In this document: positions 10,829-41,757 of the stretch, piece by piece
Numbering within the stretch: position 1 is the stretch's first letter
Layout: the number at the start of each line of letters is the position of its first letter
NCBI GenBank assembly: GCA_963662275.1
Contig: OY759316.1
Coordinates: forward strand, 224,001 to 288,000
Reading direction: 5' to 3'
DNA length: 64,000 nucleotides
From: Candidatus Cloacimonadales bacterium
Lineage (GTDB): Bacteria; Cloacimonadota; Cloacimonadia; Cloacimonadales; DAONDQ01
Made by a program: the position numbers and the translations under genes
Notes under the pieces: model-generated
Told to the model about the DNA's origin: nothing
What the model saw: the letters and a program-made list of their open reading frames with translations, nothing else
Databases searched by the model: none

Positions 10829-12136
<1,308 letters not shown>

Positions 12137-12166
12137 TTAATGCATATGGATAAGCTTTGTATATCG

Positions 12167-12419: not shown

Positions 12420-14801
12420 ATGACAAATTCACGTTTTCTATTGCGATTAATGCTAATTTTATTCTGTTTTTCATTACCTGTTTTTGTATTTGCTAGTGAA
12501 GCTGACCTTTTACTCCCTGATCTAAGCCAAGTCCAGTTCGTAGGAATTGATGGTCATTCGCTACTGGCTTTCGGTTTAATCATATGTGTTTTAGGTTTGT
12601 TGTTCGGATTCTTTCAATATCGGGGAATTCGTAGTCTTCCAGTCCATCGAGCGATGAGCGAAGTCTCTGAATTGATCTATAGTACGTGTAAGACTTATTT
12701 GATCACACAAGGTAAATTCTTATTGGTACTGGAAGTGCTGATTGGAATTATCATCTCCTTTTATTTTGGTTATGTGAAGCATTTCCCAGGTTCACATGTA
12801 GCGATCATTCTTGCTTCGAGTGTGATCGGGATTCTTGGCAGCTATATGGTTGCCTGGTTTGGAATACGTGTCAACACAAGAGCAAACTCACGTTCTGCTT
12901 TTGCTAGCCTGAGAGGCAAACCTTTCCCGACCTATGCCATCCCAATCAGGGCAGGTATTAGTGTTGGAATGATGTTGATCAGTGTTGAACTTTTAATTAT
13001 GCTCTGCATATTGTTATTTATCCCGGGTAATTATGCCGGTGCCTGTTTCATAGGCTTTGCTATCGGTGAATCTTTGGGTGCTTCAGTGCTTCGTATTGCT
13101 GGCGGTATTTTTACTAAGATAGCTGACATCGGTGCTGACCTGATGAAGATCGAACACGAGATCAAAGAAGATGATCCCCGCAATCCCGGTGTGATTGCTG
13201 ATTGTACCGGTGATAATGCCGGTGATTCTGTAGGTCCCACTGCTGATGGTTTTGAAACTTATGGTGTAACAGGTGTTGCACTCATCACTTTCGTACTGCT
13301 GGCAGTCCCCAATGTTCAGATGCAGGTAATCCTGCTTGTTTGGCTTTTCGTTATGCGCCTTGCTATGCTCATTGCCAGCGGATTATCCTATTATATCAAT
13401 GACTTCATTGCTCGCATCCGCTTTTCGCACGTCGATAAAATGAATTTCGAAGATCCTTTAACCTCACTGGTATGGATTACTTCTGTTTTCTCGATCTTTT
13501 TAATATTCCTGCTATCCTATATCATCCTTGCTCCTCATTATCCAACCTTATGGTGGAAACTTGCTTCTATCATAACGTGTGGAACTATAGCAGGAGCAGT
13601 GATTCCTGAAATCGTCAAAATATTCACATCCACCAAATCTGCCTTTGTGCAGAATATTCTGACTTCTTCAAAACATGGAGGAGCTTCTTTGAATATTCTC
13701 GCTGGTCTTACTTCCGGCAATTACAGTGCATATTGGATGGGAATGGTGATCATTGCATTAATGGGAACTGCATTCATATTTAGTACCTTTGGTCTTGGCG
13801 TTTTCATGATTGCCCCTGCTGTTTTTGCGTTTGGCTTGGTAGCTTTCGGGTTTTTGAGTATGGGGCCGGTTACAATTGCCGTAGATTCATATGGACCTGT
13901 TACGGATAATGCGCAATCTGTATATGAATTATCCTTGATTGAAACCATTCCTAATATTAAAAAAGAAATTGAAAAAGACTTTGGATTTACACCTGATTTT
14001 GAGAGAAGTAAGGCTTTTCTCGAAGAAAATGACGGTGCCGGCAATACTTTTAAAGCTACAGCAAAACCTGTTCTTATTGGTACTGCTGTTGTAGGTGCTA
14101 CGACTATGATCTTTTCCATCATCATGATTTTAACTAACGGTCTTACTCAAAACATGGAGAAACTATCATTAATATATCCTCCATTCCTATTGGGTTTGCT
14201 TGCTGGCGGGGCAATGATCTATTGGTTTACCGGCGCAACAATGCATGCTGTTACGAGTGGAGCCTACCGAGCCGTTGAGTTCATCAAATCTAAACTGAAA
14301 CTGGATGGACATGCTGTAGCTAGCTTGGAAGACAGCTCGAAAGTAGTGGAAATTTGCACTATTTACGCCCAAAAAGGCATGATCAATATCTTCATGGTTA
14401 TTTTTCTGACCACATTAGCATATGCTTGCCTGGAACCTTTCTTCTTTATTGGATACCTGATTTCCATCGCGATGTTCGGTCTTTACCAGGCTATCTATAT
14501 GGCGAATGCCGGTGGTGCCTGGGATAATACGAAGAAAATTGTGGAATGCGATTTAAAGGAAATGTCAACTCCTTTGCATGAAGCTTCTGTTATTGGTGAT
14601 ACCGTTGGAGATCCATTTAAAGATACTTCTTCTGTGGCTATGAACCCGGTGATCAAGTTCACAACCTTATTCGGGTTACTGGCTATGGAATTGGCTCTGA
14701 CTTTAACCCGTACGATGAACACAATTTTGGCGATTATATTCTTTAGTGGAGCACTTATTTTTATCGTACTATCCTTTACCAGTATCCGTATTCGGGATTA
14801 G
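12420..14801 (+). CDS. hppA: Membrane-integral cation-pumping pyrophosphatase (K+-independent-type signature)
   Basis: GGIFTKIADIGADL, EDDPRNPGVIADCTGDNAGD, GNTFKA, GGAWDNTKK, GDTVGDPFKD. Likely start is 12420, after AGGAG. Confidence 0.93.
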   Translation: MTNSRFLLRLMLILFCFSLPVFVFASEADLLLPDLSQVQFVGIDGHSLLAFGLIICVLGLLFGFFQYRGIRSLPVHRAMSEVSELIYSTCKTYLITQGKFLLVLEVLIGIIISFYFGYVKHFPGSHVAIILASSVIGILGSYMVAWFGIRVNTRANSRSAFASLRGKPFPTYAIPIRAGISVGMMLISVELLIMLCILLFIPGNYAGACFIGFAIGESLGASVLRIAGGIFTKIADIGADLMKIEHEIKEDDPRNPGVIADCTGDNAGDSVGPTADGFETYGVTGVALITFVLLAVPNVQMQVILLVWLFVMRLAMLIASGLSYYINDFIARIRFSHVDKMNFEDPLTSLVWITSVFSIFLIFLLSYIILAPHYPTLWWKLASIITCGTIAGAVIPEIVKIFTSTKSAFVQNILTSSKHGGASLNILAGLTSGNYSAYWMGMVIIALMGTAFIFSTFGLGVFMIAPAVFAFGLVAFGFLSMGPVTIAVDSYGPVTDNAQSVYELSLIETIPNIKKEIEKDFGFTPDFERSKAFLEENDGAGNTFKATAKPVLIGTAVVGATTMIFSIIMILTNGLTQNMEKLSLIYPPFLLGLLAGGAMIYWFTGATMHAVTSGAYRAVEFIKSKLKLDGHAVASLEDSSKVVEICTIYAQKGMINIFMVIFLTTLAYACLEPFFFIGYLISIAMFGLYQAIYMANAGGAWDNTKKIVECDLKEMSTPLHEASVIGDTVGDPFKDTSSVAMNPVIKFTTLFGLLAMELALTLTRTMNTILAIIFFSGALIFIVLSFTSIRIRD

Positions 14802-14842
14802 AACTAACAATAAGAATTGCTTATCTATTAGTGTTATATATC

Positions 14843-14876
14843 AAAATGGCAGACTGTTCGGTCTGCCATTTGATTT
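14843..14876. terminator. Bidirectional hairpin terminator between hppA and the convergent gene
   Basis: AAATGGCAGAC-tgttcg-GTCTGCCATTT. Confidence 0.75.
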
Positions 14877-14886
14877 AGGAGATCAG

Positions 14887-17457
14887 TTATTTAACCAGGA
14901 TTAGCTTCTGAATCCTATGTTTATTCCCGAGGTAAGAAGAACAGAAGTAGATACCGGAAGCTAGCTGGTGGTTGCTTTCATCTGTCCCGTTCCAATCCAG
15001 GTCATGTTTGCCGGATTCTAAAAAAGCATTGATCAAGGTCTTGACTTTCTGCCCCCTGATATTGAATATCTCCAGTTTCACTTTTTGCGGTGATTTCAGA
15101 TGAAAAGACAGCGTTGCGCTGCTTTGAAAGGGATTCGGGTATATTGATAATCCTTCCCTCGCTGCTGCTGTATTGTCTTGGTTGGCAACGGGTGTAATGA
15201 TTGACATCCTGCGAATGCTATCATAGCGATTTGCGTAACTGACGATGAGTGAGGGAGAAAATGTGCCGCCTTCTGTATAAGCATAAGTGGGATTCTGCTC
15301 TTCAGAATCAAGGACACCATCATCATTGAAATCCCACGCCCAATGATCGGCATCACCAGTACTCATATCCGTAAAATGGACGGCAAGTGGAGCTGCACCA
15401 CTGGTATCAGAGACAGCAAAACCAGCCTGAATCTGACCCTGGTATTCATAAGCACCAATATCTATCCTACTCTCTATCCCCAAACCATTCATTATTCTCG
15501 GATTGCCGAATAAGTCAAAAGGAGAGAGCGATAATCCTGTGGTATCAGTTGTTCCGGCATCTATCCCCGGGGATAGGGAAGTTATCATATAGGAGTTATC
15601 TCCCCACCCAAAGAATATCGGCTCTTCATCAATATTTCCCTCCTGCCAGTGCAGGAAATCGGAAGGATCACAAAATACACCTTCCATGCCATTCCGAATG
15701 ATATTATTGGATAGATACTCATGATGATTATTCAAACCATCAGGAGTATATAGAAATTGAACTTCCTGGGTTAAACTCGGATTCCAAAAGATATTGTTCT
15801 TCAGGACAGCATCACCCACTATTCCCAACACTGCGCTTCCTCCTGAATTATTGGCAAACGTGCAGTTACTGATTTCAATACCGTTATTGGCTGAGATTAG
15901 AGCCATAAAAGTATATGCTGTTTGAGTATTCTCTATGATATTAGAATTCGTTATTATTACTTTGAGTGTATCATCATCTGTATTACGCCCAATAGAAAAA
16001 ATAGTTGGCATTCCTTCTGCTGAACTGAAATTCCCCTTGAAAGTGCAGCCATCTATAATAATCGTTCCCTTATCACCATATTTCAAACCATTTCCATCTC
16101 CCTGAAGACTTGTATTGTTTTCGGAAATGCAATTAATCAGTTTATTCAATCCAGAACACTCACTAAAAGAAAAACCAGGATAAAAATAAGTTACTGAATT
16201 GTTGAGAATAATTGTATTTGTTATACTAAAATCCCTTCCTTTACCAATAGAGATCCCAGAACTTGAATTGCTCATGCCACCAGTTGCAATTACATTTTCA
16301 ATTATCAGACCATAACTCATATTTGATACAATACTCTGTGCTGAATTGTAACATGTCAAATTTGAAACTCTAACACTTTTGCTGTGAAATGCAGTAGACA
16401 ATAATAGATATATATTCTCTCCATCCAATATGGTGCTTTCTCGTGTTTCTCCCTTGAGATGTGTCCAGCTTTTTAAAGACACACCATATCTCTGATTATT
16501 CGCGGAAACTGAATATGTTCCTGGAGCGAGATGTACTGTTTTCGGATTCAGACTGTCTGCTGCTATATGATACATGGCATAATAAATGGAGCGCAGGGGT
16601 GTTGATTCTGATAAGCCATCATTTGCATCACTGCCATTGGGAGAAACATACAGGTCATGATTGATTTCTGTCATATAGGCATGTTCAACTTCGTAAATAA
16701 TGGAATTCTCAATATGGGGATCGGATGCGTATCCGGTAATAAAATAATTCAAGGGACTTATCACCGTGCAGGTATCTAAAATCACATGGACAGAGTTGTA
16801 TAATGAGAACTGACAATCCAAACCGTAAGAGGCGTCATTATTATAGATCGAGCATTTATTTACAGAACTGAATGTCACAGAAAATGAATTTGATAAATCA
16901 CTGTAACAAAATAACCCACCTCCACCATCTGATGCACTATTATTAAAAATTGAGGTTCCTTCAAAAATTAGATTTGACCATGTACTAGCAATCCCTCCTC
17001 CCCCATCAGCAGTATTGCCATAAATCTTACAATTAGTTACTAATAATTGGTCATTACCTGAGCTTAGGATACCTCCTCCCCACCTTGCATTACTCTCCGT
17101 ATAATAAGTGCCAATACCATTTGTTAGCGTTAGTCCCCTAATTATAGCATTCATTTCGTTGTGATTAAGAATAATGCAACTGCTTAAATGATTCCCGTCA
17201 ATGATCGTGGAATCAATATAAGCAGGATTCCCGGTTGTCAGTTCCAAACTCGCAAGGGTTAGGCTATGCCCATTGAAATTGATATTCTCGAAGTATCTTC
17301 CCGGATATACTAAGACCGTGTCACCGGTTGCAGAGGCATTGATGGCTGATTGGATAGCAGTAAACTGAGCAGAGCCATCCAGGTTTACGGTATGAGTAAG
17401 AGCGCAGAGTATTCCTGTTGAGAATGCAAGCATTATCAATAACATAGTCTTTGACAT
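14887..17457 (-). CDS. Secreted right-handed beta-helix + PKD + CTD surface protein (allele A)
   Basis: Signal peptide; TIQSAI...GDTVLVYPGRY; GGG beta-helix turns; DIGAYEY; PKD (WAWDFNDDG...NPTY); CTD YPNPF...ASGIYF. Confidence 0.85.
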   Translation of the reverse strand: MSKTMLLIMLAFSTGILCALTHTVNLDGSAQFTAIQSAINASATGDTVLVYPGRYFENINFNGHSLTLASLELTTGNPAYIDSTIIDGNHLSSCIILNHNEMNAIIRGLTLTNGIGTYYTESNARWGGGILSSGNDQLLVTNCKIYGNTADGGGGIASTWSNLIFEGTSIFNNSASDGGGGLFCYSDLSNSFSVTFSSVNKCSIYNNDASYGLDCQFSLYNSVHVILDTCTVISPLNYFITGYASDPHIENSIIYEVEHAYMTEINHDLYVSPNGSDANDGLSESTPLRSIYYAMYHIAADSLNPKTVHLAPGTYSVSANNQRYGVSLKSWTHLKGETRESTILDGENIYLLLSTAFHSKSVRVSNLTCYNSAQSIVSNMSYGLIIENVIATGGMSNSSSGISIGKGRDFSITNTIILNNSVTYFYPGFSFSECSGLNKLINCISENNTSLQGDGNGLKYGDKGTIIIDGCTFKGNFSSAEGMPTIFSIGRNTDDDTLKVIITNSNIIENTQTAYTFMALISANNGIEISNCTFANNSGGSAVLGIVGDAVLKNNIFWNPSLTQEVQFLYTPDGLNNHHEYLSNNIIRNGMEGVFCDPSDFLHWQEGNIDEEPIFFGWGDNSYMITSLSPGIDAGTTDTTGLSLSPFDLFGNPRIMNGLGIESRIDIGAYEYQGQIQAGFAVSDTSGAAPLAVHFTDMSTGDADHWAWDFNDDGVLDSEEQNPTYAYTEGGTFSPSLIVSYANRYDSIRRMSIITPVANQDNTAAAREGLSIYPNPFQSSATLSFHLKSPQKVKLEIFNIRGQKVKTLINAFLESGKHDLDWNGTDESNHQLASGIYFCSSYLGNKHRIQKLILVK

Positions 17458-17491
17458 ATCTTCTCCAAGATTCTAATTGGAACGCTATCTT

Positions 17492-17837
17492 TAGACCCCC
17501 CTCCCCCCCTTCTCAAGGGGGGATTAAGGAGCCTTATCTGAACTTAATTTTAGTCTCCCCTTTCCAATCCCCCCTTGAGAAGGGGGGTTAAGGAGCCTTA
17601 TCTGAACTTAATTTTAGTACCCTTTCTAATCCCCCCTTGAGAAGGGGGGTTAAGGAGCCTTATCTGAACTTAATTTTAGTACCCTTTCTAATCCCCCCTT
17701 GAGAAGGGGGGTTAAGGAGCCTTATCTGAACTTAATTTTAGTCTCCCCTTGAGAAGGGGGGTTAAGGAGCCTTATCTGAACTTAATTTTAGTCTCCCCTT
17801 TCTAATCCCCCCTTGAGAAGGGGGGTAGGGGGGTCTA
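17492..17837. repeat. Palindromic tandem array bounded by 35-bp inverted repeats (REP/BIME- or MITE-like), 5 units
   Basis: CCCCCCTT-GAG-AAGGGGGG hairpins separated by the constant linker GGAGCCTTATCTGAACTTAATTTTAGT. The ends are reverse complements with 1 mismatch. Confidence 0.9.
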
Positions 17838-27366: not shown

Positions 27367-29039
27367 TTATCCTTTCGTAAAGTACTCTCTTTTCAAGTAT
27401 TTTTCTGTATTTTCCACATAGTAGGATAGAACCCAGTCTTGTGGTTTTTCTGCTAAATATTTCGGTTCCAATTATCCGCTTTATTGCTCTTATCTTCTTC
27501 TGTGTATATCTTTACAGCTTCCCGGAAGCGATGATGTGAAAAGATTCTCATGAATTCTGTGAAATAGATATCAGCTACTGTAAGGTCATTCCGAATGATA
27601 AGCATATTCTCATCATTTCCATGCGTGCTTTCGTCACTCCAATTAGCTGAGCCAGATATAACAGTAGGTTTTGTTCCTAACGGGTCAACAAGCATAAACT
27701 TAGTATGGACCCAGGGAACACCACTTCCGAGAGAGAAACGTTCTTCCAGCCAACCATCAATTGTTTTCACTTTGATATAGTCTCCCACAGCCATACAGAT
27801 ATTGGGGAATTTACGGATTCTGTCTATTTCTGCCTTGGCTTCTTTACTATTTCTACCACAACTGGGATATTTATCGAGCATTGCAAAGCGTAAAACAGAA
27901 TCTTCATGATCAAACACTTTAGCAAAGCCATCTAAAATACCGAATGGGAAAGTCATGAAAAGAGCCTCTGTTGCACTTGAAGCAGTACTCTTGTACCATT
28001 CCAGAACCCTGTCTTCTGTTTTAGTTCCCTTATGCGGAGAAAAAATAACCGGTATTGAATCTGCCTTCTCTTCTAGTGGAAATACGTTATTGGTTTCCAC
28101 CCATTCCTGCATAACTTTATGTTCATCATCCTTCTTTAATTCCATCCAATAATTGAGATATTGCTGTGCAAGAACTGGGTCTTCCACGATGATACCGTTA
28201 TTCAACTGACCATATACTGCGTTTTCAGAAGCATTCATGGAGCCGGTCCAGGCGGCTATAGGTTTGCCCAGATGCGATAATACAACAAATTTGTTATGCA
28301 TGACTGGCGCATTTATTCTGGGAAAACAATAAGGGTCTAATTTTCCTTCATGGATAGCTTGTTTTGTTTTTTGGGTTCCTGAAGCATTTGGCTCAGCATC
28401 ATAAATGATTTCAACAGATACTTTACGAGCTACTGCTTCAGCAAACATCTGGAGTATTTTTGGCAAATTGAATTCATAAAATGCGCAGTGCAGACTATAA
28501 TCTTTATTTTCCGCGCGTTTGATAAAGCTCTCAAATCCATCCAGCAAACCTCTCTCTAACCACTGATAAGCAGCATCTCCAACTTTCGAAGGTTTTTCCC
28601 TGCCAAATTTCTTCGTATATGCCTGTGAGGCTATTGCTCCCATATTAAAGAACACAGATATTTTCTCTCCAAAGGGTTTTTCTGTGGAAATCTCGACTTC
28701 AGTTAATGATCCTTTTTGTAATTTCCCAGGTTCTCCGCGCATGGGATAGATTCGATAGATGTAAGTATATCCCGGTTTTGCTGTATAATCTGCCCATTGA
28801 AAACCTTGAATTGGTGCGACCAAGCTCGAATAATCCGTCACCGTTGAACCAGCATTGCATTTTTCAAATGTTTTATTACCACGTAACCAAACGACTTCTC
28901 CGGTTTCTTTGTCTTGCCGTTGGATAGCAAACCCCATGAGATCGTTTGTGTTCTCAACCTGCATGTTCAACCCCAAAAACACGACATGCGTTCCACTAAT
29001 TGCATAAACCGTGACTTCACCATTCTTTTTTACACGCAT
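27367..29039 (-). CDS. Phospholipase D-superfamily (HKD) protein with an apparent frameshift near the C-terminus (~27466)
   Basis: HNKFVVLS...TGSMN and HTKFMLVD...SGSANWS; ATG 29039 follows AGGAGG. The ORF stops at 27453, but the shifted frame continues (KYLAEKPQDW...EYFTKG*) to 27367. Confidence 0.8.
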
Positions 29040-29166
29040 AATATCCTCCTGATTTTGTTTACTTAAGTTTTCACCCAATATTTTCTTATCCATTCTAACG
29101 AAATACATGAAGAGTCCATATTGGGTTGAATCTATTACCCAATAATATATTATTTTGATTTCTCAG

Positions 29167-30330
29167 TTATAAAGCTAGAAGAATCAATATAGCTAAGGAT
29201 GCTCCTCCAATTACTTTAAGTGCAAGGCTTCTGTTATTTTGTTCTATCCCTTGAATTTGTTCAGGTGATGCTAGAACCAATGGAAGCTGGTAGAATTTGC
29301 TGCCTTCATTATTTTTGAAATCAAGAGGATTGGAACTTTGAGCATTATACGTTATTGGTAATGAGATATTAAAAGTATCAGCTTTCGCTGTATTATCTAT
29401 ATACATTTTGTATTTGGAATTAAATTTATATAATTTCGCTCTAGCTGGTGGTTTATTTTTATACAAAACTGGAAATACACTGGGGTCTTTATCAGTTATT
29501 AACATACTATTTGTACTATCGCCTTGTAATGCATTGTTAATTTGATATAATGATACTCCATTAGGGAGGATTTGCTGAGGCCAGTACGTAATACATGAAT
29601 CAGACTGAGTTTTATGAAATAGGTGTGATTCCATATCTTGATTAATATGGAAATCTTTTTCATCTGTTTTCTTTAGTTTAATGTATGATCCTTCTTGATA
29701 TGGTGTTTTAAATTCTAGTAGTAGTTGATTTTTATAGTTTATATTAAGAACTTGTGAAGAAGTAACTAAAATATTATTAGTATGTAAAAACTGCTCTACA
29801 GATAGCGTATCATTCAGGATATGAATATATCTTTCTTTCTTATAGATGTTATCGAGCTTGATTAAAAGCTCTGTTTTAGATGAATCAATTAGAGTTTTGC
29901 TGGATGAAATTTCATCTTTTCCAAGAATAAGTGAACCGTGAAAATCTGAACTATTGAGTCCGGAATATATAGCCATTATATTGGGGTTATTTTTAAAACG
30001 AAACATAGAATAATACTGACGATCAGTATAGAACTCAAAAGACACTACATCATCAATATCATGGTCTTTAGGCAATTTACCGAAATTATCTAGATAAATT
30101 ATTGCTTTAGCACTTTTTAAGCTTGAGCCAGGGTTTTTTGTATTTGGAAGTGATTTATATATAGACTCTCCGTCCTCAATATTTATCGGTATTTGAACAC
30201 AAATACGTAAATTTCTATTTACAGAATGCTCTTGTGAAAAAAGATAATTAGTAAAAATTACTAACAAAAAAAGGCATATGATAGTTAATTCTATCTTTTT
30301 GCTTTGCTTAAAAGATACAAATAGTTCCAT
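29167..30330 (-). CDS. Exported hypothetical protein with C-terminal hydrophobic anchor
   Basis: N-terminal hydrophobic stretch; ends ALKVIGGASLAILILLAL; overlaps the upstream gene. Confidence 0.65.
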   Translation of the reverse strand: MELFVSFKQSKKIELTIICLFLLVIFTNYLFSQEHSVNRNLRICVQIPINIEDGESIYKSLPNTKNPGSSLKSAKAIIYLDNFGKLPKDHDIDDVVSFEFYTDRQYYSMFRFKNNPNIMAIYSGLNSSDFHGSLILGKDEISSSKTLIDSSKTELLIKLDNIYKKERYIHILNDTLSVEQFLHTNNILVTSSQVLNINYKNQLLLEFKTPYQEGSYIKLKKTDEKDFHINQDMESHLFHKTQSDSCITYWPQQILPNGVSLYQINNALQGDSTNSMLITDKDPSVFPVLYKNKPPARAKLYKFNSKYKMYIDNTAKADTFNISLPITYNAQSSNPLDFKNNEGSKFYQLPLVLASPEQIQGIEQNNRSLALKVIGGASLAILILLAL

Positions 30331-30818
30331 TTTTTTAGTACCACCATTTCATTTTTTATGTCTCTTGAATGATAAGGGAAATCAATAGTAAGATAATGGT
30401 TATTCAGTTTTTGGTCGTAAATAAACTTCAGATTAATAATTATTGTCCCAATAGTATGAGGATTCTGTTGATACCAATTGATTTCCTTATCTGAAATACT
30501 ATAGAATTTTATATCATATATTTTTGTTGTATCAGGATGCTCGCTAAAAAGTTTTTCCTGGTAAACAGTCGAACGAATATTTTCTTTGATTAAGCAATCA
30601 TTGCATAGACGATCCCACTGGATCTTTGAGATAGTCACTGTTTTGGGTGCTTGACGAGGATTATTACCTGATTCTGAAAAAAAATCAGGTAAAAAGATCT
30701 TAAGCACAATAAATACAATACCTAATGTTATGCCCATAGCAGATAACATCATATACATATCTAAAGAAAAGAGATTAATATCATCTCCGCTAGATTCTAT
30801 ATCATGTCTTCGTTTCAT
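30291..30818 (-). CDS. ExbD/TolR/MotB-like single-TM protein (putative)
   Basis: MKRR...DDINLFSLDMYMML followed by a TM helix resembles the ExbD INxxxxxD motif. Overlaps the stop codon of the ExbB-like gene by 4 bp. Confidence 0.55.
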   Translation of the reverse strand: MKRRHDIESSGDDINLFSLDMYMMLSAMGITLGIVFIVLKIFLPDFFSESGNNPRQAPKTVTISKIQWDRLCNDCLIKENIRSTVYQEKLFSEHPDTTKIYDIKFYSISDKEINWYQQNPHTIGTIIINLKFIYDQKLNNHYLTIDFPYHSRDIKNEMVVLKKWNYLYLLSKAKR

Positions 30819-32581
30819 CGTTTATCCTTTGAAAAAACATCCATAACTAGTTTAGCTATTCCTTGAAGGAAATTGACTATGTCTTGGATTAAAGTTGAAT
30901 CACCTTTTGGGGGACATTTCAGTTTCTTAATTTCTTGAAGTGCTTCATTAATGTCTTCAGTATCGGATGTAATTTTCTGTACGTTCTCAGATAATTTAAT
31001 TGTATTTCTATTGATATTTTCATTATTGATACGAATTGAATCAGTATCGTCCTTAATTTCATTTGTTTTTGCAGCAATTGAGGGTAATTGAGTGGAAATT
31101 TTCTCTGTATTAAGACTAATATCTGAAGTATGTTTATCGATTAATCCTGTGTGCCCAACTATATTTGTAGTATCATCTTTGATAAATGCAGTATTTTTCT
31201 GTATTAAATCCGTATAACTGGATATTTCCTCAGTGTTTTGGTTTATGCTCGATGCGTTGTCTCGAATTTCTTCAACATCTGCTTTAATATCTTTTGCTAT
31301 AGAACCTATATCAGAAGCTTCTCCACTAATCACCTGCAATTTATTAATAATGGTATTTGCGTGCTCTTCTACTCTACAACGATATCCCATTGTAAATTCT
31401 GGTCTTTCTTGCATTTTGAGATATGCAGTTTCAATTAATTCTCTGTTTGAAAAAATTCGTAGACCCGTAATACCCAATATTAACTCTAGAAAAAAAGTGG
31501 CACTATGTGCCACAATACTTGTGATAACTGCGACGGAATTCCCAAGTAATGCTTGAATCATAGAATCTTTAATTATTGATGAGATATTTCCATTACCGTC
31601 ATCAGCTGCTTTCAGTTGCATCATTCCCTGAGCCATTTCATAAAATGCCAACATTACACCAAAGAGTGTTCCAAGGATTCCTAAACGCACTATCCAGGAT
31701 AATAAAACTCCCATTGTTCTATTTGATTGATTGAGTTTTTCCGTTTCTTTTTCATAGTTGTTTTCAAATATTTCTTCCATCAGTTCAGGCTTTCCCTTAT
31801 AGTGCCACATCTCATAGATTAATTTGAAAAGAGGAAATCTTCTATGCTCAGCTAAGTTATCAAAATATACATTATCCATTTCTGGAATATTCACATGACG
31901 GTAATGTTTCCTGATAAGCAAATCATATCTATATTGATACAGAATTCTGAATAAAATAACTAGAAATACAACAAACATCATTATCGACATTGCAAGATAG
32001 ATCCAGCCCGATTTTAACGATGATGTTAATTCGGAGTTCATAATGAAAAAGGGAGTTTTACCATCTGCATTTTGGGGAGGATTGAAGATAACCTGAATAG
32101 ATTTTCGATAATATTCTTTTGCTTTGGCAACGTTAAAAATAACCCCAAATCCTTGAATACCAATATCTAATACTCGTTCACCCTTTTCAGTAGAAAATGC
32201 AAGATCAACAGCTTCGAATGCCTTACGAATATATGTCGAGTCTTTCGCTGAATGAACTAGTGGCCAGTATCTTTTTAAATCCTGTTGTGCTTTAATAACA
32301 TCTTTTGAATTTTTAAAAGATGTTTTATTGATGATTTGGGAAATATCAGAAATTTTGGATTGTGGCATATTTTTCGTATCAGATCCAACATAAATGTCTT
32401 TTAAAGTTGAACTGTATTTGTTAATTTTTTTGTAATATCTAATGTTGTCATCAATTGTAGATCCAATCCAGAACATCAAACCTGATCCACTAATTACTAG
32501 ATACGAAACGAATAGAAACAACATAGCTCTCCAGCCATATTTTGAAAAAAGGAAATCTCTAATATTTTTCAAAACTAACAT
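30815..32581 (-). CDS. MotA/TolQ/ExbB proton-channel family protein with long heptad-repeat C-terminal tail
   Basis: LGILGTLFGVMLAFYEM and GNSVAVITSIVA TM pair, two additional N-terminal TMs, and a tail of I-x-x-x-T-x-x heptads. Confidence 0.75.
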   Translation of the reverse strand: MLVLKNIRDFLFSKYGWRAMLFLFVSYLVISGSGLMFWIGSTIDDNIRYYKKINKYSSTLKDIYVGSDTKNMPQSKISDISQIINKTSFKNSKDVIKAQQDLKRYWPLVHSAKDSTYIRKAFEAVDLAFSTEKGERVLDIGIQGFGVIFNVAKAKEYYRKSIQVIFNPPQNADGKTPFFIMNSELTSSLKSGWIYLAMSIMMFVVFLVILFRILYQYRYDLLIRKHYRHVNIPEMDNVYFDNLAEHRRFPLFKLIYEMWHYKGKPELMEEIFENNYEKETEKLNQSNRTMGVLLSWIVRLGILGTLFGVMLAFYEMAQGMMQLKAADDGNGNISSIIKDSMIQALLGNSVAVITSIVAHSATFFLELILGITGLRIFSNRELIETAYLKMQERPEFTMGYRCRVEEHANTIINKLQVISGEASDIGSIAKDIKADVEEIRDNASSINQNTEEISSYTDLIQKNTAFIKDDTTNIVGHTGLIDKHTSDISLNTEKISTQLPSIAAKTNEIKDDTDSIRINNENINRNTIKLSENVQKITSDTEDINEALQEIKKLKCPPKGDSTLIQDIVNFLQGIAKLVMDVFSKDKR

Positions 32582-32589
32582 AACATCTC

Positions 32590-33663
32590 CTAAAATTTAA
32601 TACTAATACTTGTTTTCAAGGGAGAGTCAACCAGGCTAAGTGACTCACTATCATAATTATATTTATTCAATTTATCATAATTCATATAAATTGTGTAACT
32701 TATATCGACTTCTGCTTTCGAAAAATGTAGAAATTTGGAGATCAATTTGTTGAATCCAAAACCCAAAGAGGTACTATCCCAGCTGAAAGAATCTCCATTA
32801 GAACCAACTCCCCCAGAAAATCCAATTCTACTTATGAGTAATTCCCAGAAGTAAATTTCTCCTCCGATTGTGCATTTCAAGGGAGAATAATTAGAAGCAT
32901 TTCCTTCAAAACCTATCATTAGATGTTGTTTACTAAATTGATAGCAAGCACCCGTTCTTATTCCATATTGATAAATATCATCTTCACTACGAAGAGATTC
33001 AAATGTTGTCTGTAATGCAATACCTATCTGAAGACTATCCAATGATCCTCTGAAACCAAGATCGATACCATGTTGGTGTTTGGGACTTCTTAAGCGACCA
33101 ATATCCATCCATCCATTCTTGTAATCGATGCCTAAAGAATAATCACCAGCTATTCTTTTAGCCAAAGCAATTGAAATCATATTTTCGCGACTATCAAATA
33201 CACCAATTGTTTCAATTTCATTTGTATTTGGAATAATCTGAGTCTGTTGGATATTATTAATGCCTCTTGAATACAAATTAAGACCACAGTCAACATCCCA
33301 TAATTTATGAAGCAGACCAAAATACATAAAATCCCATCCATCATCAGTAGAAGAATTTAAGTTAAAGTAGTCATCTGTATCACCAGGATGACTCCATCTC
33401 TGTATCATGCCAATTTCTGTTTCTTTAATATCATCTTCTTTCGCAATACCTGCCGGATTCCAGAACATTGAAAACGGTCCAGTGGAAAAAGCGACTCCCA
33501 TTCCTCCCATGGCAACTTCTCTAGGTGAGACTGGAATCTGTGCAAAAGCTAAAGGACCTCCACCTCCGCTATATACCTTAGCTTCAGCATTACAAATCAT
33601 TAATGAATACATCGATATGAATAAAAAAAGAACTAGCTTACATTTAATAACATACGTATTCAT
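32590..33663 (-). CDS. PorV/PorQ-family outer-membrane beta-barrel
   Basis: Signal peptide; FAQIPVSPREVAMGG...FWNPAGIA plug motif; terminal Phe (ISIKF); AGGAG RBS. Confidence 0.8.
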   Translation of the reverse strand: MNTYVIKCKLVLFLFISMYSLMICNAEAKVYSGGGGPLAFAQIPVSPREVAMGGMGVAFSTGPFSMFWNPAGIAKEDDIKETEIGMIQRWSHPGDTDDYFNLNSSTDDGWDFMYFGLLHKLWDVDCGLNLYSRGINNIQQTQIIPNTNEIETIGVFDSRENMISIALAKRIAGDYSLGIDYKNGWMDIGRLRSPKHQHGIDLGFRGSLDSLQIGIALQTTFESLRSEDDIYQYGIRTGACYQFSKQHLMIGFEGNASNYSPLKCTIGGEIYFWELLISRIGFSGGVGSNGDSFSWDSTSLGFGFNKLISKFLHFSKAEVDISYTIYMNYDKLNKYNYDSESLSLVDSPLKTSISIKF

Positions 33664-33671
33664 TTTATCTC

Positions 33672-36264
33672 CTAATGAACAAGCACAAGAGGCCAGGAAA
33701 CTTTGATATCGTTATTTGCTTTTAGATAGACCAAGTATATACCACTTGCAACGGCATCCCCACTATAGTTCCTTCCATTCCATCCATTTAGAATTTGATG
33801 TTTTCCAGCATCATTTTTTACACTCCACTTTTTAACAAGTCGTCCAGCAGAGTCTATGATCTTAATCTCAGCAGAACTTACTTCGGACGGTAACTGATAT
33901 TCAATAATGGCATATCCATTTTCTTTTTGATAATATGGGTTTGGAGCTGTTCTGAGAGAATATCCTCCTGATTCATGTTGATGATTAATTGGTTGATCTA
34001 TTTTAAAAGTAACACTATCTACTTCGCCTGCTTTATTCAGAATCGTTGGTATGCTTATATTTGTAGTCAGCTTTCCTGAAAGTGGCTCTGTATTTGTTAA
34101 AATCCAGTTATTTGTAAGATTTTCAGCTAGAAGAGAATCATCTTCAGACTGATACTCCACACGGTCAGAATCCAGAGCATCGCTACCACCTACCATGACT
34201 CCATCTCTTGTGTATCCTATAAATACAGGTCTTAAAATATTAGTGAACATTTGAGCTATTGGATTGATTAATACATCAGAGAGTTTCATTTTATTTGCAT
34301 CAAAACCCCTGGTTTCATTAATAAAGTTTTGAACTCTTTCAAGAGCATTATTGGAATAAAGATATTTTAGAGTATCTGTAATAGATTTGGGACTCAGAAT
34401 AAGAGACTTTAGTTGGGCTTCGTTAGAGCTTTCTAATAATGTACTTAAAGATTGCATCATCTTCGATTTTGAAATGAAGTTCCGACCTGTGATGTATGCA
34501 CTTACATCTGTATACGGAGATATATTACTATAGGCTTCATTTAACCCTGATGGATAAAAATTCAAAACTACTGGTGGTATCCCATCTTCCACTATCAGCG
34601 TATATTTACAAAAAAGACTATCACCAGTAGGTTCTTGGCAAATTTCCTCTAATTGATGTTCAATATTCTCTTCGTTGCATTGGAAAGCAACATCATTGTA
34701 ATCTGGACCTACTATCAAGTTACTCGCAATATGGGTTTTAATAACCAGCATAGAAGGATCGGATTGTGCTTTTAATAGTGTAACACTCGAACTGTCTCTA
34801 TTACTGGCACAATTTGTTGCTAATTTAGCACCATCTCCCAATTTGATAAACATACATTCAGCAGAATCTGCCTCTGTATAACCTATTTGTTGATAAGATA
34901 GAACAATTGAATTATCTACATTATCTATATCTTCAAACTTGTCATCAGATTCTGTCAGAAAGAACATATTCTTTGCTTCATTCCCGAATTGAGAATGTCT
35001 TGATACATTCATATCAAATTTTACTTTGATAAGATCGTCCTTGTTGATTTCTCCATCAGGTATACCTGTTATTCCACCATCTAAGTAACGACAATTCATA
35101 ATTTGTGGCAATTTGTCTGTTTGCACAGTGATCCTGATTGCTGAAGGATACGTAATATGGGTAACACATCTTGTTGTATCCATATAAGAGCATACAAGAT
35201 CCAGATTAACTGCATAATCACCGAGAACCATTGCCCCGGGTATCATTTCATTGAATGTTAAAACAGCACTGTTATTGATAGAATCAAGCACGACATTCGA
35301 GTTCATATATGCAGTAACACTGTTTCCCAGGTTATCAGAGAAAGACAGTTTGGAACAGGGTTCTTGATTAATTGTATTACCGAATAAAGTCAAATTTGGA
35401 TGCCTACCAGGTTTCAAATGCACGAATACTTCAAATTTAGCAAGTTTCTCTCTTAGAACGATGGGATCAGATTGTAATACGGGGATTTCTAATGCTGGAG
35501 GGCTAATAATTTCAAAGAGATTGATACATGTAGTTGAATCCGTAAATGCATTTTGATTCTCATCATGTCCTTTTAATATGAATGTAACATCATGAAATCC
35601 TACTTCAAAATCTAATCCTAACGGAGAATAGCTAAAAATGCAATGCATCACAGAACCTTCATCTACTATGCATGAGTCCATATATGAGATGAATTCATGA
35701 CCTGCGTTGTCTTTACACTTAATCAGACTCTCATTCATAGCAAAATAAGCATCTGCGCTTCCTTGATTCTCGATGTCTATACTGAAACGAACAGTTCCAC
35801 CCTGAACTCCGTTTCCTGGACTCAGAGAGCTTATATCAGGCTCTAATTCAACAGGAGTTTGTGCTGTAACATCATCAGAAAGAGTTCCACTACTGAAGAA
35901 CTCATAGCCGTTTCTATCTGAACCTTTTAGTTGTAGTGTCATATGACAAAGAGAATCTGATACAATTGGGAAAACCTTCGATTTAAAAGTGATAGGAAGA
36001 GTCTCATTGGAATGAAAATGCACTACAGAAGTTGCAAACAGAGTATCGATACCGTTTAGAGTCGGAAAACTCAACCAGGTTTGACTAGGTTGAAGATCAA
36101 TTTCTGTACTCGTTTGATTTTGAACCTGTAATGAAAATGAACGTGAGAATCCCATTGTCACCTTTGGGGGAGATATCGATCCTGCGAGATATTCTAATTT
36201 AGGATCTTCGATAACCTGTACAGAATCTATGGTATTGGGTTGATCATCTATCATGGAAAGAGAG
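33672..36264 (-). pseudogene. 5'-truncated large secreted Ig-like-repeat protein with CTD
   Basis: CTD APNPY...IIDSAGRLVK...WNGRNYSGDAVASGIYL. No signal peptide; the apparent ATG (36272) lies inside the duplicated hppA sequence. Confidence 0.75.
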
Positions 36265-38490
36265 TTAATCATATGTGTTTTAGGTTTGTTGTTCGGATTC
36301 TTTCAATATCGGGGAATTCGTAGTCTTCCAGTCCATCGAGCGATGAGCGAAGTCTCTGAATTGATCTATAGTACGTGTAAGACTTATTTGATCACACAAG
36401 GTAAATTCTTATTGGTACTGGAAGTGCTGATTGGAATTATCATCTCCTTTTATTTTGGTTATGTGAAGCATTTCCCAGGTTCACATGTAGCGATCATTCT
36501 TGCTTCGAGTGTGATCGGGATTCTTGGCAGCTATATGGTTGCCTGGTTTGGAATACGTGTCAACACAAGAGCAAACTCACGTTCTGCTTTTGCTAGCCTG
36601 AGAGGCAAACCTTTCCCGACCTATGCCATCCCAATCAGGGCAGGTATTAGTGTTGGAATGATGTTGATCAGTGTTGAACTTTTAATTATGCTCTGCATAT
36701 TGTTATTTATCCCGGGTAATTATGCCGGTGCCTGTTTCATAGGCTTTGCTATCGGTGAATCTTTGGGTGCTTCAGTGCTTCGTATTGCTGGCGGTATTTT
36801 TACTAAGATAGCTGACATCGGTGCTGACCTGATGAAGATCGAACACGAGATCAAAGAAGATGATCCCCGCAATCCCGGTGTGATTGCTGATTGTACCGGT
36901 GATAATGCCGGTGATTCTGTAGGTCCCACTGCTGATGGTTTTGAAACTTATGGTGTAACAGGTGTTGCACTCATCACTTTCGTACTGCTGGCAGTCCCCA
37001 ATGTTCAGATGCAGGTAATCCTGCTTGTTTGGCTTTTCGTTATGCGCCTTGCTATGCTCATTGCCAGCGGATTATCCTATTATATCAATGACTTCATTGC
37101 TCGCATCCGCTTTTCGCACGTCGATAAAATGAATTTCGAAGATCCTTTAACCTCACTGGTATGGATTACTTCTGTTTTCTCGATCTTTTTAATATTCCTG
37201 CTATCCTATATCATCCTTGCTCCTCATTATCCAACCTTATGGTGGAAACTTGCTTCTATCATAACGTGTGGAACTATAGCAGGAGCAGTGATTCCTGAAA
37301 TCGTCAAAATATTCACATCCACCAAATCTGCCTTTGTGCAGAATATTCTGACTTCTTCAAAACATGGAGGAGCTTCTTTGAATATTCTCGCTGGTCTTAC
37401 TTCCGGCAATTACAGTGCATATTGGATGGGAATGGTGATCATTGCATTAATGGGAACTGCATTCATATTTAGTACCTTTGGTCTTGGCGTTTTCATGATT
37501 GCCCCTGCTGTTTTTGCGTTTGGCTTGGTAGCTTTCGGGTTTTTGAGTATGGGGCCGGTTACAATTGCCGTAGATTCATATGGACCTGTTACGGATAATG
37601 CGCAATCTGTATATGAATTATCCTTGATTGAAACCATTCCTAATATTAAAAAAGAAATTGAAAAAGACTTTGGATTTACACCTGATTTTGAGAGAAGTAA
37701 GGCTTTTCTCGAAGAAAATGACGGTGCCGGCAATACTTTTAAAGCTACAGCAAAACCTGTTCTTATTGGTACTGCTGTTGTAGGTGCTACGACTATGATC
37801 TTTTCCATCATCATGATTTTAACTAACGGTCTTACTCAAAACATGGAGAAACTATCATTAATATATCCTCCATTCCTATTGGGTTTGCTTGCTGGCGGGG
37901 CAATGATCTATTGGTTTACCGGCGCAACAATGCATGCTGTTACGAGTGGAGCCTACCGAGCCGTTGAGTTCATCAAATCTAAACTGAAACTGGATGGACA
38001 TGCTGTAGCTAGCTTGGAAGACAGCTCGAAAGTAGTGGAAATTTGCACTATTTACGCCCAAAAAGGCATGATCAATATCTTCATGGTTATTTTTCTGACC
38101 ACATTAGCATATGCTTGCCTGGAACCTTTCTTCTTTATTGGATACCTGATTTCCATCGCGATGTTCGGTCTTTACCAGGCTATCTATATGGCGAATGCCG
38201 GTGGTGCCTGGGATAATACGAAGAAAATTGTGGAATGCGATTTAAAGGAAATGTCAACTCCTTTGCATGAAGCTTCTGTTATTGGTGATACCGTTGGAGA
38301 TCCATTTAAAGATACTTCTTCTGTGGCTATGAACCCGGTGATCAAGTTCACAACCTTATTCGGGTTACTGGCTATGGAATTGGCTCTGACTTTAACCCGT
38401 ACGATGAACACAATTTTGGCGATTATATTCTTTAGTGGAGCACTTATTTTTATCGTACTATCCTTTACCAGTATCCGTATTCGGGATTAG
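36253..38490 (+). pseudogene. hppA: 5'-truncated second copy of hppA (lacks the first 52 aa, in-frame MERE fusion start)
   Basis: Matches 12576-14801 from 36265 onward; no RBS seen before ATG 36253. Confidence 0.85.
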
Positions 38491-38575
38491 AACTAACAAT
38501 AAGAATTGCTTATCTATTAGTGTTATATATCAAAATGGCAGACTGTTCGGTCTGCCATTTGATTTAGGAGATCAG

Positions 38576-41146
38576 TTATTTAACCAGGATTAGCTTCTGA
38601 ATCCTATGTTTATTCCCGAGGTAAGAAGAACAGAAGTAGATACCGGAAGCTAGCTGGTGGTTGCTTTCATCTGTCCCGTTCCAATCCAGGTCATGTTTGC
38701 CGGATTCTAAAAAAGCATTGATCAAGGTCTTGACTTTCTGCCCCCTGATATTGAATATCTCCAGTTTCACTTTTTGCGGTGATTTCAGATGAAAAGACAG
38801 CGTCGCGCTGCTTTGAAAGGGATTCGGATATATTGATAATCCTTCCCTCGCTGCTGCTGTATTGTCTTGGTTGGCAACGGGTGTAATGATTGACATCCTG
38901 CGAATGCTATCATAGCGATTTGCGTAACTGACGATGAGGGAGGGAGAAAATGTGCCGCCTTCTGTATAAACATAAGTGGGATTCTGCTCTTCAGAATCAA
39001 GAACACCATCATCATTGAAATCCCACGCCCAATGATCGGCATCACCAGTACTCATATCCGTAAAATGGACGGCAAGTGGAGCTGCACCACTGGTATCAGA
39101 GACAGCAAAACCAGCATGAATCTGACCCTGGTATTCATAAGCACCAATATCTATCCTGCTCTGTACCCCCAAACCATTCATTATTCTCGGATTTCCAAAT
39201 AAGTCAAAAGGAGAGAGTGATAATCCTGTGGTATCAGTTGTTCCGGCATCTATACCCGGGGATAGGGAAGTTATCATATAGGAGTTATCTCCCCACCCAA
39301 AGAATATCGGCTCTTCATCAATATTTCCCTCCTGCCAGTGCAGGAAATCTGAAGGATCACAAAATACACCATCCATGCCATTCCGAATGATGTTATTGGA
39401 TAGATACTCATGATGATTATTCAAACCATCAGGAGTATAAAGAAATTGAACTTCCTGGGTTAAACCCGGATTCCAAAAGATATTGTTCTTCAGGACAGCA
39501 TCACCCACTATTCCCAACACAGCGCTTCCTCCTGAATTATTGGCAAACGTGCAGTTACTGATTTCAATACCGTTATTGGCTGATACTAGAGCCATAAAAG
39601 TATATGCTGTTTGAGTATTCTCTATGATATTAGAATTCGTTATTATTACTTTGAGTGTATCATCATCTGTATTACGCCCAATAGAAAAAATAGTTGGCAT
39701 TCCTTCTGCTGAACTGAAATTCCCCTTGAAAGTGCAGCCATCTATGATAATCGTTCCCTTATCACCATATTTCAAACCATTTCCATCTCCCTGAAGACTT
39801 GTATTGTTTTCGGAAATGCAATTAATCAGATAATTAGTGCCTCTGTTTTCACCAAAATAAAAGCCAGGATAAACATATGAAGCAAAATTGTTTCTTACAG
39901 TAGTATTCTTTATTCGAAAGTCCTTACATCGGGTAATACCGATTCCCGATCCAATATCGCTTGAAGCATTTTCAACTATGACGTTATTAATTAACAAATT
40001 CAAGGATTTATCGGGGGCAATACTGATATTCGAATTTCTGCATGTGAGATTGGTTATTGTAACATTTCGGCTGCCAGTTGCGGGTCTGATTAGAATTTGT
40101 GTTCCACTCCCATCAAGTACAGTGGTTTCTCTTGTTTCTCCAGTAAGGGTTGTCCAGCTTTTTACAGGTATTCCGTATTGCTGATAGTTTTCGGGAAATG
40201 AATAGTTACCGGGTGCAAGATAAATCATCTTAGGATTTAAACTGTCTGCTGCTATATGATACATGGCATAATATATGGAGCGAAGCGGAGATGCTTCCGA
40301 CAAGCCATCATTTGCATTATTGCCATTAGGAGCAACATATAGGTCATGATTAATTTCTGTCATATAGGCATGTTCAATTTCACAAGTGATGGGATTCTCT
40401 ATTTGTGGATTATATGAATATCCTGTTATGAAAAAATTCAGTGGATTCATAACAGAACAAGTATCCAGTATGACTTGTACATAATCAAAATATTGAAAAA
40501 AACAGTCTGTTCCTATTGATGCAAAGTTATTATAGATATTGCACTTCACTTGCTGATTAAAAACAATTGTATTATTTACTAATTGTAAATTATTATAACA
40601 TATGATACCCCCCCCAATATCAGCATTGTTATCCCTAACAGTTGTCCCAGCTAAAAAAAGATTTGAAGCATTGGAGGAAATCCCTCCTCCATTATCGGCT
40701 GAATTATTGAATATTAAACTATTTATCACACTAAGTTGACCAATATGAGAACTATTTATTCCTCCTCCAAAACGTTTATTACTTCCAGTATAATAATTGC
40801 CAATTCCATTTGTAAGAGTTAGTCCTTGAACGGTCGCATTAATTTCATTATGATTAAGAATAATGCAACTGCTAATCTGGTTTCCATCTATAATTGTAGA
40901 ATTTGTATATATAGGATTCCCAGTTGTCAGTTCCAAACTCGCAAGGGTGATGCTATGCCCATTAAAATTGACATTCTCGAAGTATCTTCCCGGATATACT
41001 AAGACCGTGTCACCGGTTGCAGAGGCATTGATGGCTGATTGGATAGCAGTAAACTGAGCAGAGCCATCCAGGTTTACGGTATGAGTAAGAGCGCAGAGTA
41101 TTCCTGTTGAGAATGCAAGCATTATCAATAACATAGTCTTTGACAT
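38576..41146 (-). CDS. Secreted beta-helix + PKD + CTD protein (allele B)
   Basis: Paralog of 14887-17457 with a divergent N-terminal block. Confidence 0.85.
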   Translation of the reverse strand: MSKTMLLIMLAFSTGILCALTHTVNLDGSAQFTAIQSAINASATGDTVLVYPGRYFENVNFNGHSITLASLELTTGNPIYTNSTIIDGNQISSCIILNHNEINATVQGLTLTNGIGNYYTGSNKRFGGGINSSHIGQLSVINSLIFNNSADNGGGISSNASNLFLAGTTVRDNNADIGGGIICYNNLQLVNNTIVFNQQVKCNIYNNFASIGTDCFFQYFDYVQVILDTCSVMNPLNFFITGYSYNPQIENPITCEIEHAYMTEINHDLYVAPNGNNANDGLSEASPLRSIYYAMYHIAADSLNPKMIYLAPGNYSFPENYQQYGIPVKSWTTLTGETRETTVLDGSGTQILIRPATGSRNVTITNLTCRNSNISIAPDKSLNLLINNVIVENASSDIGSGIGITRCKDFRIKNTTVRNNFASYVYPGFYFGENRGTNYLINCISENNTSLQGDGNGLKYGDKGTIIIDGCTFKGNFSSAEGMPTIFSIGRNTDDDTLKVIITNSNIIENTQTAYTFMALVSANNGIEISNCTFANNSGGSAVLGIVGDAVLKNNIFWNPGLTQEVQFLYTPDGLNNHHEYLSNNIIRNGMDGVFCDPSDFLHWQEGNIDEEPIFFGWGDNSYMITSLSPGIDAGTTDTTGLSLSPFDLFGNPRIMNGLGVQSRIDIGAYEYQGQIHAGFAVSDTSGAAPLAVHFTDMSTGDADHWAWDFNDDGVLDSEEQNPTYVYTEGGTFSPSLIVSYANRYDSIRRMSIITPVANQDNTAAAREGLSIYPNPFQSSATLSFHLKSPQKVKLEIFNIRGQKVKTLINAFLESGKHDLDWNGTDESNHQLASGIYFCSSYLGNKHRIQKLILVK

Positions 41147-41180
41147 ATCTTCTCCAAGATTCTAATTGGAACGCTATCTT

Positions 41181-41476
41181 TAGACCCCCCTCCCCCCCTT
41201 CTCAAGGGGGGATTAAGGAGCCTTATCTGAACTTAATTTTAGTCTCCCCTTTCCAATCCCCCCTTGAGAAGGGGGGTTAAGGAGCCTTATCTGAACTTAA
41301 TTTTAGTACCCTTTCTAATCCCCCCTTGAGAAGGGGGGTTAAGGAGCCTTATCTGAACTTAATTTTAGTACCCTTTCTAATCCCCCCTTGAGAAGGGGGG
41401 TTAAGGAGCCTTATCTGAACTTAATTTTAGTCTCCCCTTTCTAATCCCCCCTTGAGAAGGGGGGTAGGGGGGTCTA
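41181..41476. repeat. Palindromic tandem array, 4 units
   Basis: As 17492-17837 but 50 bp shorter. Confidence 0.9.
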
Positions 41477-41757
41477 TTTCTGAATCTGTGCCATATTTGG
41501 AGTTCAAATGCCCTAAACAAATTATCATTGAATACTTAACTAAAAGGGCATTCGGACTTCAAAATCGACCTTTCATTCTCGGTAGCGAAAACCTGTTTTC
41601 TGGGAAGTTCAAATCCTCAGCTTTCATGTAAAGTCCAAATCGCCTTTGTGAAATGTTATTTATTACATTTACCCGCTTTTAATGGTTATAAATAACCATT
41701 CACGAAGCAACTTGGTGATTGAAACTCCAAAATTCGAGAGTATTGCGCCCCTATAGA

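Follow-up and report, generated by a model that had tools for sequence, protein, structure and literature searches.

We analyzed a stretch of 64,000 nucleotides from Candidatus Cloacimonadales bacterium (contig OY759316.1, positions 224,001-288,000, assembly GCA_963662275.1), hereafter the window, whose minus strand carries a cassette of five co-oriented open reading frames (ORFs). In gene order, these encode the remnant of a giant surface protein (the cargo) ending in a type 9 secretion system (T9SS) C-terminal sorting domain (CTD), a PorV/PorQ-like outer-membrane barrel, a motor protein of the MotA/ExbB/TolQ family (the A subunit), a small partner with a conserved Asp (the putative B subunit), and an anchored periplasmic protein; their coordinates are collected in Table 1. 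An initial annotation of this DNA had described five tightly coupled genes, and the same spacings were recovered in the ORF list, namely gaps of 8 bp and 8 bp followed by overlaps of 4 bp and 40 bp. The layout differed in one minor respect, the first ORF starting at 36272 in the ORF tool versus 36264 in that annotation, and the identities it had given to the parts (CTD cargo, MotA/ExbB motor, Asp partner and anchored protein) hold, with a barrel that resembles PorV/PorQ. The AT-rich character it had ascribed to the block was also recovered, with a GC content of 0.29-0.37 across 29000-36000 versus 0.38-0.43 in both flanks. A promoter and terminator scan gave nothing exceeding shuffles, and no RNA dataset among public runs was listed as a holder.

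Table 1. Features of the cassette and of the adjoining duplication, in window coordinates (aa, amino acids; AF2, AlphaFold2; H+-PPase, H+-pyrophosphatase)
Feature	Position	Strand	Basis
A subunit, MotA/ExbB/TolQ family, 588 aa	30815..32581	-	PF01618, hydropathy, core profile, AF2 model
B-subunit-like partner, 175 aa	30291..30818	-	one transmembrane helix, Asp20, 4-bp overlap with A gene
Type-I anchored periplasmic protein, 387 aa	29167..30330	-	hydropathy, position
Divergent PorV/PorQ-like outer-membrane barrel, 357 aa, signal peptide	32590..33663	-	PorV_fam, PorVQ2, PDB profile match
5'-truncated remnant of giant CTD surface-protein (cargo) gene, 866 aa	33672..36272	-	alignment to G032 homologue
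T9SS type-A C-terminal sorting domain of cargo, aa 777-858	33699..33944	-	TIGR04183, FlgD_ig
Duplication copy A, ~5.2 kb, with full-length H+-PPase at 12294-14801 (835 aa)	12576..17800	.	sequence identity
Duplication copy B, ~5.2 kb, left edge 36264/36265 truncating cargo and PPase (36253-38490)	36265..41500	.	sequence identity

To place the cassette among other genomes, DNA context was obtained for eight places besides the window. Six loci, the window included, had at least 8 kb of context; the other five were L007 in a second Cloacimonadales genome (G032), L008 from Melioribacteraceae, L010 and G639/L025 from one unclassified phylum-level group, and L013 from a metagenome. The order giant protein, barrel, A, B and anchored protein, all on one strand, was found in all six of these long loci, representing at least three lineages, and the three short contigs (L011, L012 and G642/L026) each showed a consistent partial order. 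The co-occurrence in other genomes on which the initial annotation had let its proposal hang was thus found in all the long loci, and the short contigs agree with it as far as they extend. Because the same order and orientation recur in 6/6 loci, the five-gene grouping goes beyond chance. It could be argued that the genes are unrelated neighbors or spurious ORFs in an AT-rich stretch, given that the 175-aa and 387-aa proteins match no family and that the anchored proteins cannot be aligned across loci; the synteny already contradicts this, as do the overlapping starts, the Asp invariant in the 175-aa family and the last-gene topology kept in 6/6 loci, and we regard such an explanation as hardly credible.

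The sequences at these loci are highly divergent. Compared with the other loci, the window showed identities of 24-41% for the A core, 23-32% for the barrel, 36-50% for B over its first 35-70 residues, and 25-33% for the cargo over its last 480-850 residues. An exhaustive search for the A family retrieved 44 representatives at E ≤0.001 among 1.84 billion, of which one (P0003) was a spurious repeat protein, and one cluster was labelled Marinimicrobia. The cassette was present in 2 of the 232 genomes of the window's phylum, in 1 of 401 sampled genomes of the L008 phylum and in 3 of 79 genomes of the L010 phylum. G001, a 99% complete genome of the same genus, did not yield it, and comparison with G001 revealed no syntenic "empty site", the PPase being the sole match; viral contigs contained no relative. 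The cassette is therefore rare and patchy in its distribution.

The A subunit matched MotA_ExbB (PF01618) at residues 261-359 with 37.5 bits, above the cut-off of 22.9, and the same model matched 14/27 A-family members at E ≤0.01. Hydropathy indicated a first transmembrane helix at about residues 19-37, a predicted periplasmic region at about 38-195 and a three-helix core at about 196-374, and the cytoplasmic tail of about 190 residues (~400-588) showed heptad periodicity, with a hydrophobic autocorrelation of 0.3-0.4 at lags 7, 14, 21 and 28. When the core profile was searched against PDB, TolQ (E 6e-4), ZorA (E 0.003-0.05) and ExbB (E 1.7) were matched, whereas a profile search with the full-length A alignment gave coiled-coil proteins only. 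Coiled-coil similarity was likewise seen in genome searches, in which the A protein matched 3/5 genomes by its coiled-coil tail only, and a word-indexed homologue search with the A protein returned itself and one relative only. The AF2 model had a mean predicted local distance difference test (pLDDT) score of 64.7, with 75-92 in the core, and placed long helices at 400-460, 465-553 and 562-585 in the tail. Top Foldseek rows for this model were ExbB and TolQ, with a probability of 0.96-1.0, a target TM-score of 0.44-0.61 and E >0.1; a VIA wide search gave ZorA (Z 11.2), TolQ (Z 10.4) and ExbB (Z 9.8), which were tied and within the noise of helical proteins, helical bundles dominating the matches. 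The MotA/ExbB identity and fold that the initial annotation had assigned to the 588-aa protein are thus borne out by PF01618 above its cut-off and by a three-helix core matching ExbB/TolQ.

The 175-aa protein has one N-terminal transmembrane helix with Asp20 (codon 30759-30761), followed by a periplasmic part of about 130 aa. Asp20 was invariant in 10/10 aligned B homologues and was also present in G639 and G642. Searches of Pfam, NCBIfam, PADLOC and PDB gave no match for the window protein. Based on the invariant transmembrane Asp and the 4-bp overlap with the A gene, the 175-aa protein is called here a putative B subunit, of no known family; the two genes are translationally coupled. Prediction of a 4:2 complex of the A core with B residues 1-60 scored 0.12 and 0.10, short of the 0.32 mark; run without controls, it is evidence neither way.

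Comparison with ExbB-ExbD and TolQ-TolR revealed both the kinship and the peculiarity of this pair. Like those motors, the A protein passes PF01618, its core aligns with TolQ including the G-x-x-G-T motif, and a small one-helix Asp partner is encoded just downstream. Unlike them, the cassette A protein carries an additional anchor at its N terminus, a periplasmic region and the coiled-coil tail, and the cassette contains a PorV-like barrel and a CTD giant instead of TonB, TolA, a receptor or Pal.

Besides its signal peptide, the barrel protein has the N-terminal PorV/PorQ-barrel motif. It matched PorV_fam (NF033709) at E 4.1e-11 through this motif only, and PorVQ2 at residues 18-223 (E 2.5e-6); the homologous barrels matched PorV_fam in 5/5 cases, with a best E of 4.3e-17. 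A profile built from five barrels matched in PDB first the PorV chain 6h3i_F (E 2.4e-8) and then the FadL-type proteins TbuX, CymD and TodX. This second tier of matches, together with a motor core closest to TolQ and ExbB, might suggest a Ton-like uptake system in which the motor opens the hatch of a FadL/PorV-type barrel and imports a substrate caught by the giant surface protein. We consider this very unlikely, since the best match of the barrel is PorV, the surface protein ends in a T9SS sorting domain, and the loci tested yielded neither TonB nor a TonB-dependent receptor nor any substrate-processing gene. Specifically, Pfam, NCBIfam and PADLOC scans detected no TonB, receptor or Zorya effector beside the window genes, in agreement with the initial annotation, which had reported no adjacent TonB, TonB-dependent receptor or ZorC/D/E; TonB and receptor domains were also absent from the window genes themselves and from the scanned neighbors of L007, L008, L010 and L013 (G639 neighbors left out).

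The initial annotation had taken the first gene to encode a CTD cargo. The CTD was verified, but an intact cargo was not, the 866-aa product being a 5'-truncated remnant without the front two thirds. For the CTD, TIGR04183 scored 24.1 bits on the whole protein and 29.8 bits on the last 130 aa (cut-off 23), and FlgD_ig (PF13860) scored 37.8 bits. Its best NCBIfam match was the C terminus of PorZ (E 1.8e-8), and the C terminus of PorU matched as well. Among six cargo C termini, 5/6 matched TIGR04183 at E ≤0.05. As to the truncation, cargo residues 16-863 aligned with residues 1846-2660 of the 2663-aa homologue in G032, and the stop-to-stop frame comprises 876 aa, leaving only ten codons more upstream of the start. 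The other homologues were 2004 aa long or, when open-ended, at least 1461, 2102 and 2387 aa. Hydropathy found no hydrophobic segment at the N terminus of the remnant and hence no signal peptide, while the full-length homologues in G032 and L008 do carry one; the cargo therefore lacks a signal peptide because its gene is truncated. A search of the genome for the missing N-terminal part, with the G032 protein as query and without a positive control, did not find it elsewhere and shows little. For cargo residues 380-780 the ESM Atlas gave no usable match. In the giant protein of G032 (L007 1141-9132), the N-terminal two thirds contain runs of long near-perfect repeats like those of giant adhesins.

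The truncation point coincides exactly with the left edge of a direct duplication, at 36264/36265. Window positions 12576-15114 are identical to 36265-38803 over 2539 bp, beyond which the identity drops to 97-98% as far as about +3500 and becomes patchy up to about +5200. The start of the cargo gene overlaps the H+-PPase gene head-on by 20 bp; copy A of the PPase has 835 aa and copy B has 745 aa, lacking about the first 94 codons of copy A. The copy B PPase begins on 12 bases taken from the antisense of the cargo gene. The duplicated segment contains the H+-PPase gene, a gene for a beta-helix/PKD CTD protein of 856 aa and a partial gene for a CTD protein of 916/917 aa. In two studies, contigs (runs X1 and X3) cross the junction by 30 bases, and a contig of X4 (record 16) covers it with flanks of 170 and 693 bases; contigs of other runs thus support the junction as real DNA. 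In the related strain of run X4, the cargo remnant (window 34500-36100) was covered in patches only, and therefore the cargo sequence varies among strains sharing the same truncation junction; one X4 contig diverges from the window left of 36095. These data indicate that a very recent rearrangement of about 5.2 kb took the promoter side, the signal peptide and about two thirds of the adhesin gene from its front. Downstream of the cargo, the four remaining genes have kept their full length when set against their homologues. Because the duplication cut off the front of the adhesin gene and its promoter side, the window copy of the cassette is probably inactive or decaying, and any test should therefore use an intact locus from another genome.

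By hydropathy, the 387-aa product of the last gene has an N-terminal signal peptide and a transmembrane helix at its very C terminus, and a protein of this same topology occupies this position in 6/6 long loci. It matched no family in Pfam, NCBIfam or PADLOC, and its best ESM Atlas score (0.75) was not usable. Since no homology was detected among the five of these proteins that were compared, their equivalence rests on position and topology. In L010 and G639, one extra small ORF lies ahead of the anchored gene. At the other end of the cassette, the start of the giant gene is overlapped by a gene lying just upstream, which encodes a secreted protein of about 160 aa (L007 681-1169; L008 965-1450). 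This gene was seen in both loci that show the 5' end of the giant gene (2/2, G032 and L008), and the two proteins have no detectable similarity to each other. The upstream protein may be a sixth cassette member.

According to PMC11285876, T9SSs may occur in Cloacimonadota and in other phyla of the Fibrobacteres-Chlorobi-Bacteroidetes (FCB) group. In the window's own genome, SprA is encoded by a 2090-aa frame at 3338092-3343338, and SprA was above its cut-off in 4/5 other carrier genomes, G233 giving weak matches only. Furthermore, the cargo CTD matched the C termini of 29 other ORFs of the same genome. The initial annotation had called the locus a self-contained module; given that its CTD is the generic one of this genome, common to 29 other ORFs, and that SprA is encoded elsewhere, the cassette is not self-contained, and the cargo of the window copy is further missing the signal peptide and the front two thirds. 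The models for GldL (TIGR03513) and GldM (TIGR03517) found nothing in the same genome, and their controls were silent too, so absence of these proteins is not shown.

A dependence on the host T9SS raises the question of whether the cassette merely helps secretion. In such a dedicated export helper, the motor and the anchored protein would add proton-motive energy to pull the barrel-bound giant cargo from the SprA translocon, with no role after display. The cargo size of at least 2000 aa, its T9SS CTD, the PorV-like barrel and the presence of SprA in carriers are in line with this, and the silence of the GldL and GldM models in the genome points weakly the same way, weakly because their controls were silent as well. 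In addition, according to PMC8986121, GldLM motors drive T9SS secretion as well as the movement of adhesins. Nevertheless, at least 29 other CTD proteins of the same genome presumably exit without such a cassette, and the cassette is absent from 230/232 genomes of the phylum and therefore cannot be a general motor. The periplasmic part of B, about 130 aa, is also far shorter than GldM. A role confined to export is thus unlikely in our judgment.

Taking these data together, we assign a probability of roughly one half to the proposal that the genes form a rare, horizontally spread and portable motor-coupled giant-adhesin cassette, of five genes or of six with the small upstream gene, which rides on the T9SS of its host. 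According to this proposal, the A and B proteins would assemble into a 5:2-type stator unit driven by ions, as ExbBD, TolQR and ZorAB do. The giant protein would be exported via Sec and the host's own T9SS and would stay on the surface, its CTD bound to the dedicated PorV/PorQ-like barrel. The anchored periplasmic protein would link the motor to this barrel, and ion flow would do mechanical work on the adhesin-barrel complex by moving, tensioning or releasing the fiber. The whole would resemble a miniature of GldLM-SprB or of Agl-Glt.

Other known systems can be compared with the cassette. In the T9SS attachment complex, PorQ holds PorZ and PorV holds PorU; the cassette similarly pairs a CTD protein with a PorV/PorQ-family barrel, but here the cargo is a giant repeat protein, matching PorZ and PorU by its CTD only, and is encoded together with a motor. 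In the SprB/SprF gene arrangement, the outer-membrane barrel gene directly follows the adhesin gene. The cassette shares with GldL-GldM/SprB of Bacteroidota gliding and T9SS this position of the barrel gene, right after that of the adhesin, and an inner-membrane ion-driven motor tied genetically to a giant repetitive T9SS adhesin. It differs in that its A protein belongs to the MotA/ExbB family, with no GldL or GldM among the NCBIfam matches of A and B at E ≤0.1, in that its barrel is PorV/PorQ-like and matched no PorP/SprF model, in that its CTD is of type A, and in that the entire set fits one small sporadic unit. The AglRQS-Glt focal-adhesion machinery of Myxococcus likewise has a motor of the TolQR type together with periplasmic linkers, barrels in the outer membrane and an adhesin on the surface, whereas in the cassette no Glt homologues were detected, the parts are far fewer and the adhesin is a T9SS substrate. 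AglRS is listed among nonflagellar homologues in PMC12505986.

Several observations weigh against the motor-coupled adhesin proposal. The mechanical step is its weakest link: the contact between motor and barrel is purely inferred, and the model leaves the cytoplasmic tail of the A subunit without an explained role. The fold assignment of A meets Foldseek E values above 0.1 and VIA Z values of 10-11 that lie inside helical noise. As for the partner, 0/10 B proteins matched the ExbD, TolR, MotB or OmpA families, there was no PDB match, and the B model had a mean pLDDT of 51, in which the transmembrane helix alone was confident and the periplasmic part fell below 50. The window barrel scored 43 bits, under the PorV_fam cut-off of 90; the TIGR04183 cut-off was passed by 1/6 cargo C termini, the window's alone; and the anchored proteins were not alignable among the five compared (window, G032, L008, L013 and L010).

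The tail of the A subunit brings ZorA-ZorB into consideration, and the initial annotation had indeed allowed for an envelope-sensing defense system. As a Zorya-like sentinel, the tailed motor would sense a disturbance of the envelope or surface fiber, caused for example by phage, and signal through its tail to an effector. The likeness to ZorA lies in the long cytoplasmic coiled-coil tail on an ExbB-like core, in the match of the core profile to ZorA chains noted above, and in weak matches within the A family, in which one ZorA2 model was matched by 5/27 members and three ZorA1 models by 3/27 each, with E 2.2e-5 at best. Patchy distribution and low GC content also suit a defense system, and 58 bp downstream of the cassette (27453-29108, minus strand), in the window only, lies the gene for a protein of 551 aa with two phospholipase D (PLD)-like domains (PLDc_2, 82.6 bits). 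This protein showed weak NucT, DrmC and ZacB matches, and no partner genes of those systems were seen; its gene, with a GC content of about 0.40, is located beyond the AT-rich block and is missing from the other five loci. ZacB, moreover, belongs to the Azaca system and not to Zorya (10.1101/2025.07.10.664194). Against a sentinel there is also the A protein of the window, which matched no ZorA model at E ≤0.1 (PADLOC), as well as a partner family devoid of a peptidoglycan-binding domain (0/10 match OmpA or MotB families). None of the other loci has a conserved ZorC, ZorD, ZorE or cytoplasmic enzyme; no nuclease or helicase domains were found in the conserved neighbors of the other loci scanned, all the conserved neighbors in the cassette being envelope proteins, and genes farther out were ordinary and differed from locus to locus. 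The lack of relatives in viral contigs adds to this. Thus, with no Zor match among the window proteins, no cytoplasmic effector conserved in any locus and no peptidoglycan-binding domain on the partner, the defense reading is weakened to the point that we deem it distinctly improbable.

MotA/ExbB-type ion-driven wheels are known from a handful of systems with distinct jobs, namely swimming, uptake, envelope upkeep, gliding, secretion and phage defense. Our tentative suggestion, less probable than not, is that the cassette adds another, as yet undescribed class to the ion-driven envelope machines of the 5:2 type, next to Mot, Ton, Tol, Agl-Glt, GldLM and Zorya: a portable "motorized adhesin" able to plug into any host T9SS, in which an ExbB-like wheel with a periplasmic arm and a ZorA-like tail might couple a giant fiber to the cell interior, either outward, by moving or tensioning the fiber, or inward, by reporting pull or damage. 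The gene set was not described in the literature searched, supplements aside, including the consulted parts of PMC12505986 (a survey of MotAB relatives), PMC12204202 (a survey of periplasmic force transducers), PMC11285876 and PMC8542988. There is a fair chance that this putative motor-driven envelope system, assembled from known part families, deserves the status of a new class. Tying a wheel of this type to a giant adhesin exported by the T9SS and to a dedicated PorV-like barrel, the cassette would be a small, tractable model for how inner-membrane energy reaches the cell surface of FCB bacteria, and it could reveal the job of a ZorA-like cytoplasmic tail outside phage defense.

Two further observations concern genes around and beyond the cassette. 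At L013, positions 10496-15216, a 323-aa WD40 propeller protein and a 1254-aa PD40/peptidase M23/OmpA protein are encoded on the same strand directly after the cassette, in this locus only. The window's own genome contains 14 PorV_fam-like and 5 MotA_ExbB matches in all, and one region of it (G000:C1, ~4,325,000-4,347,000) brings together two PorV_fam barrels above cut-off (4327541 and 4343815), a MotA_ExbB gene (4338623) and ORFs with the cargo-type CTD (4325298 and 4346821).

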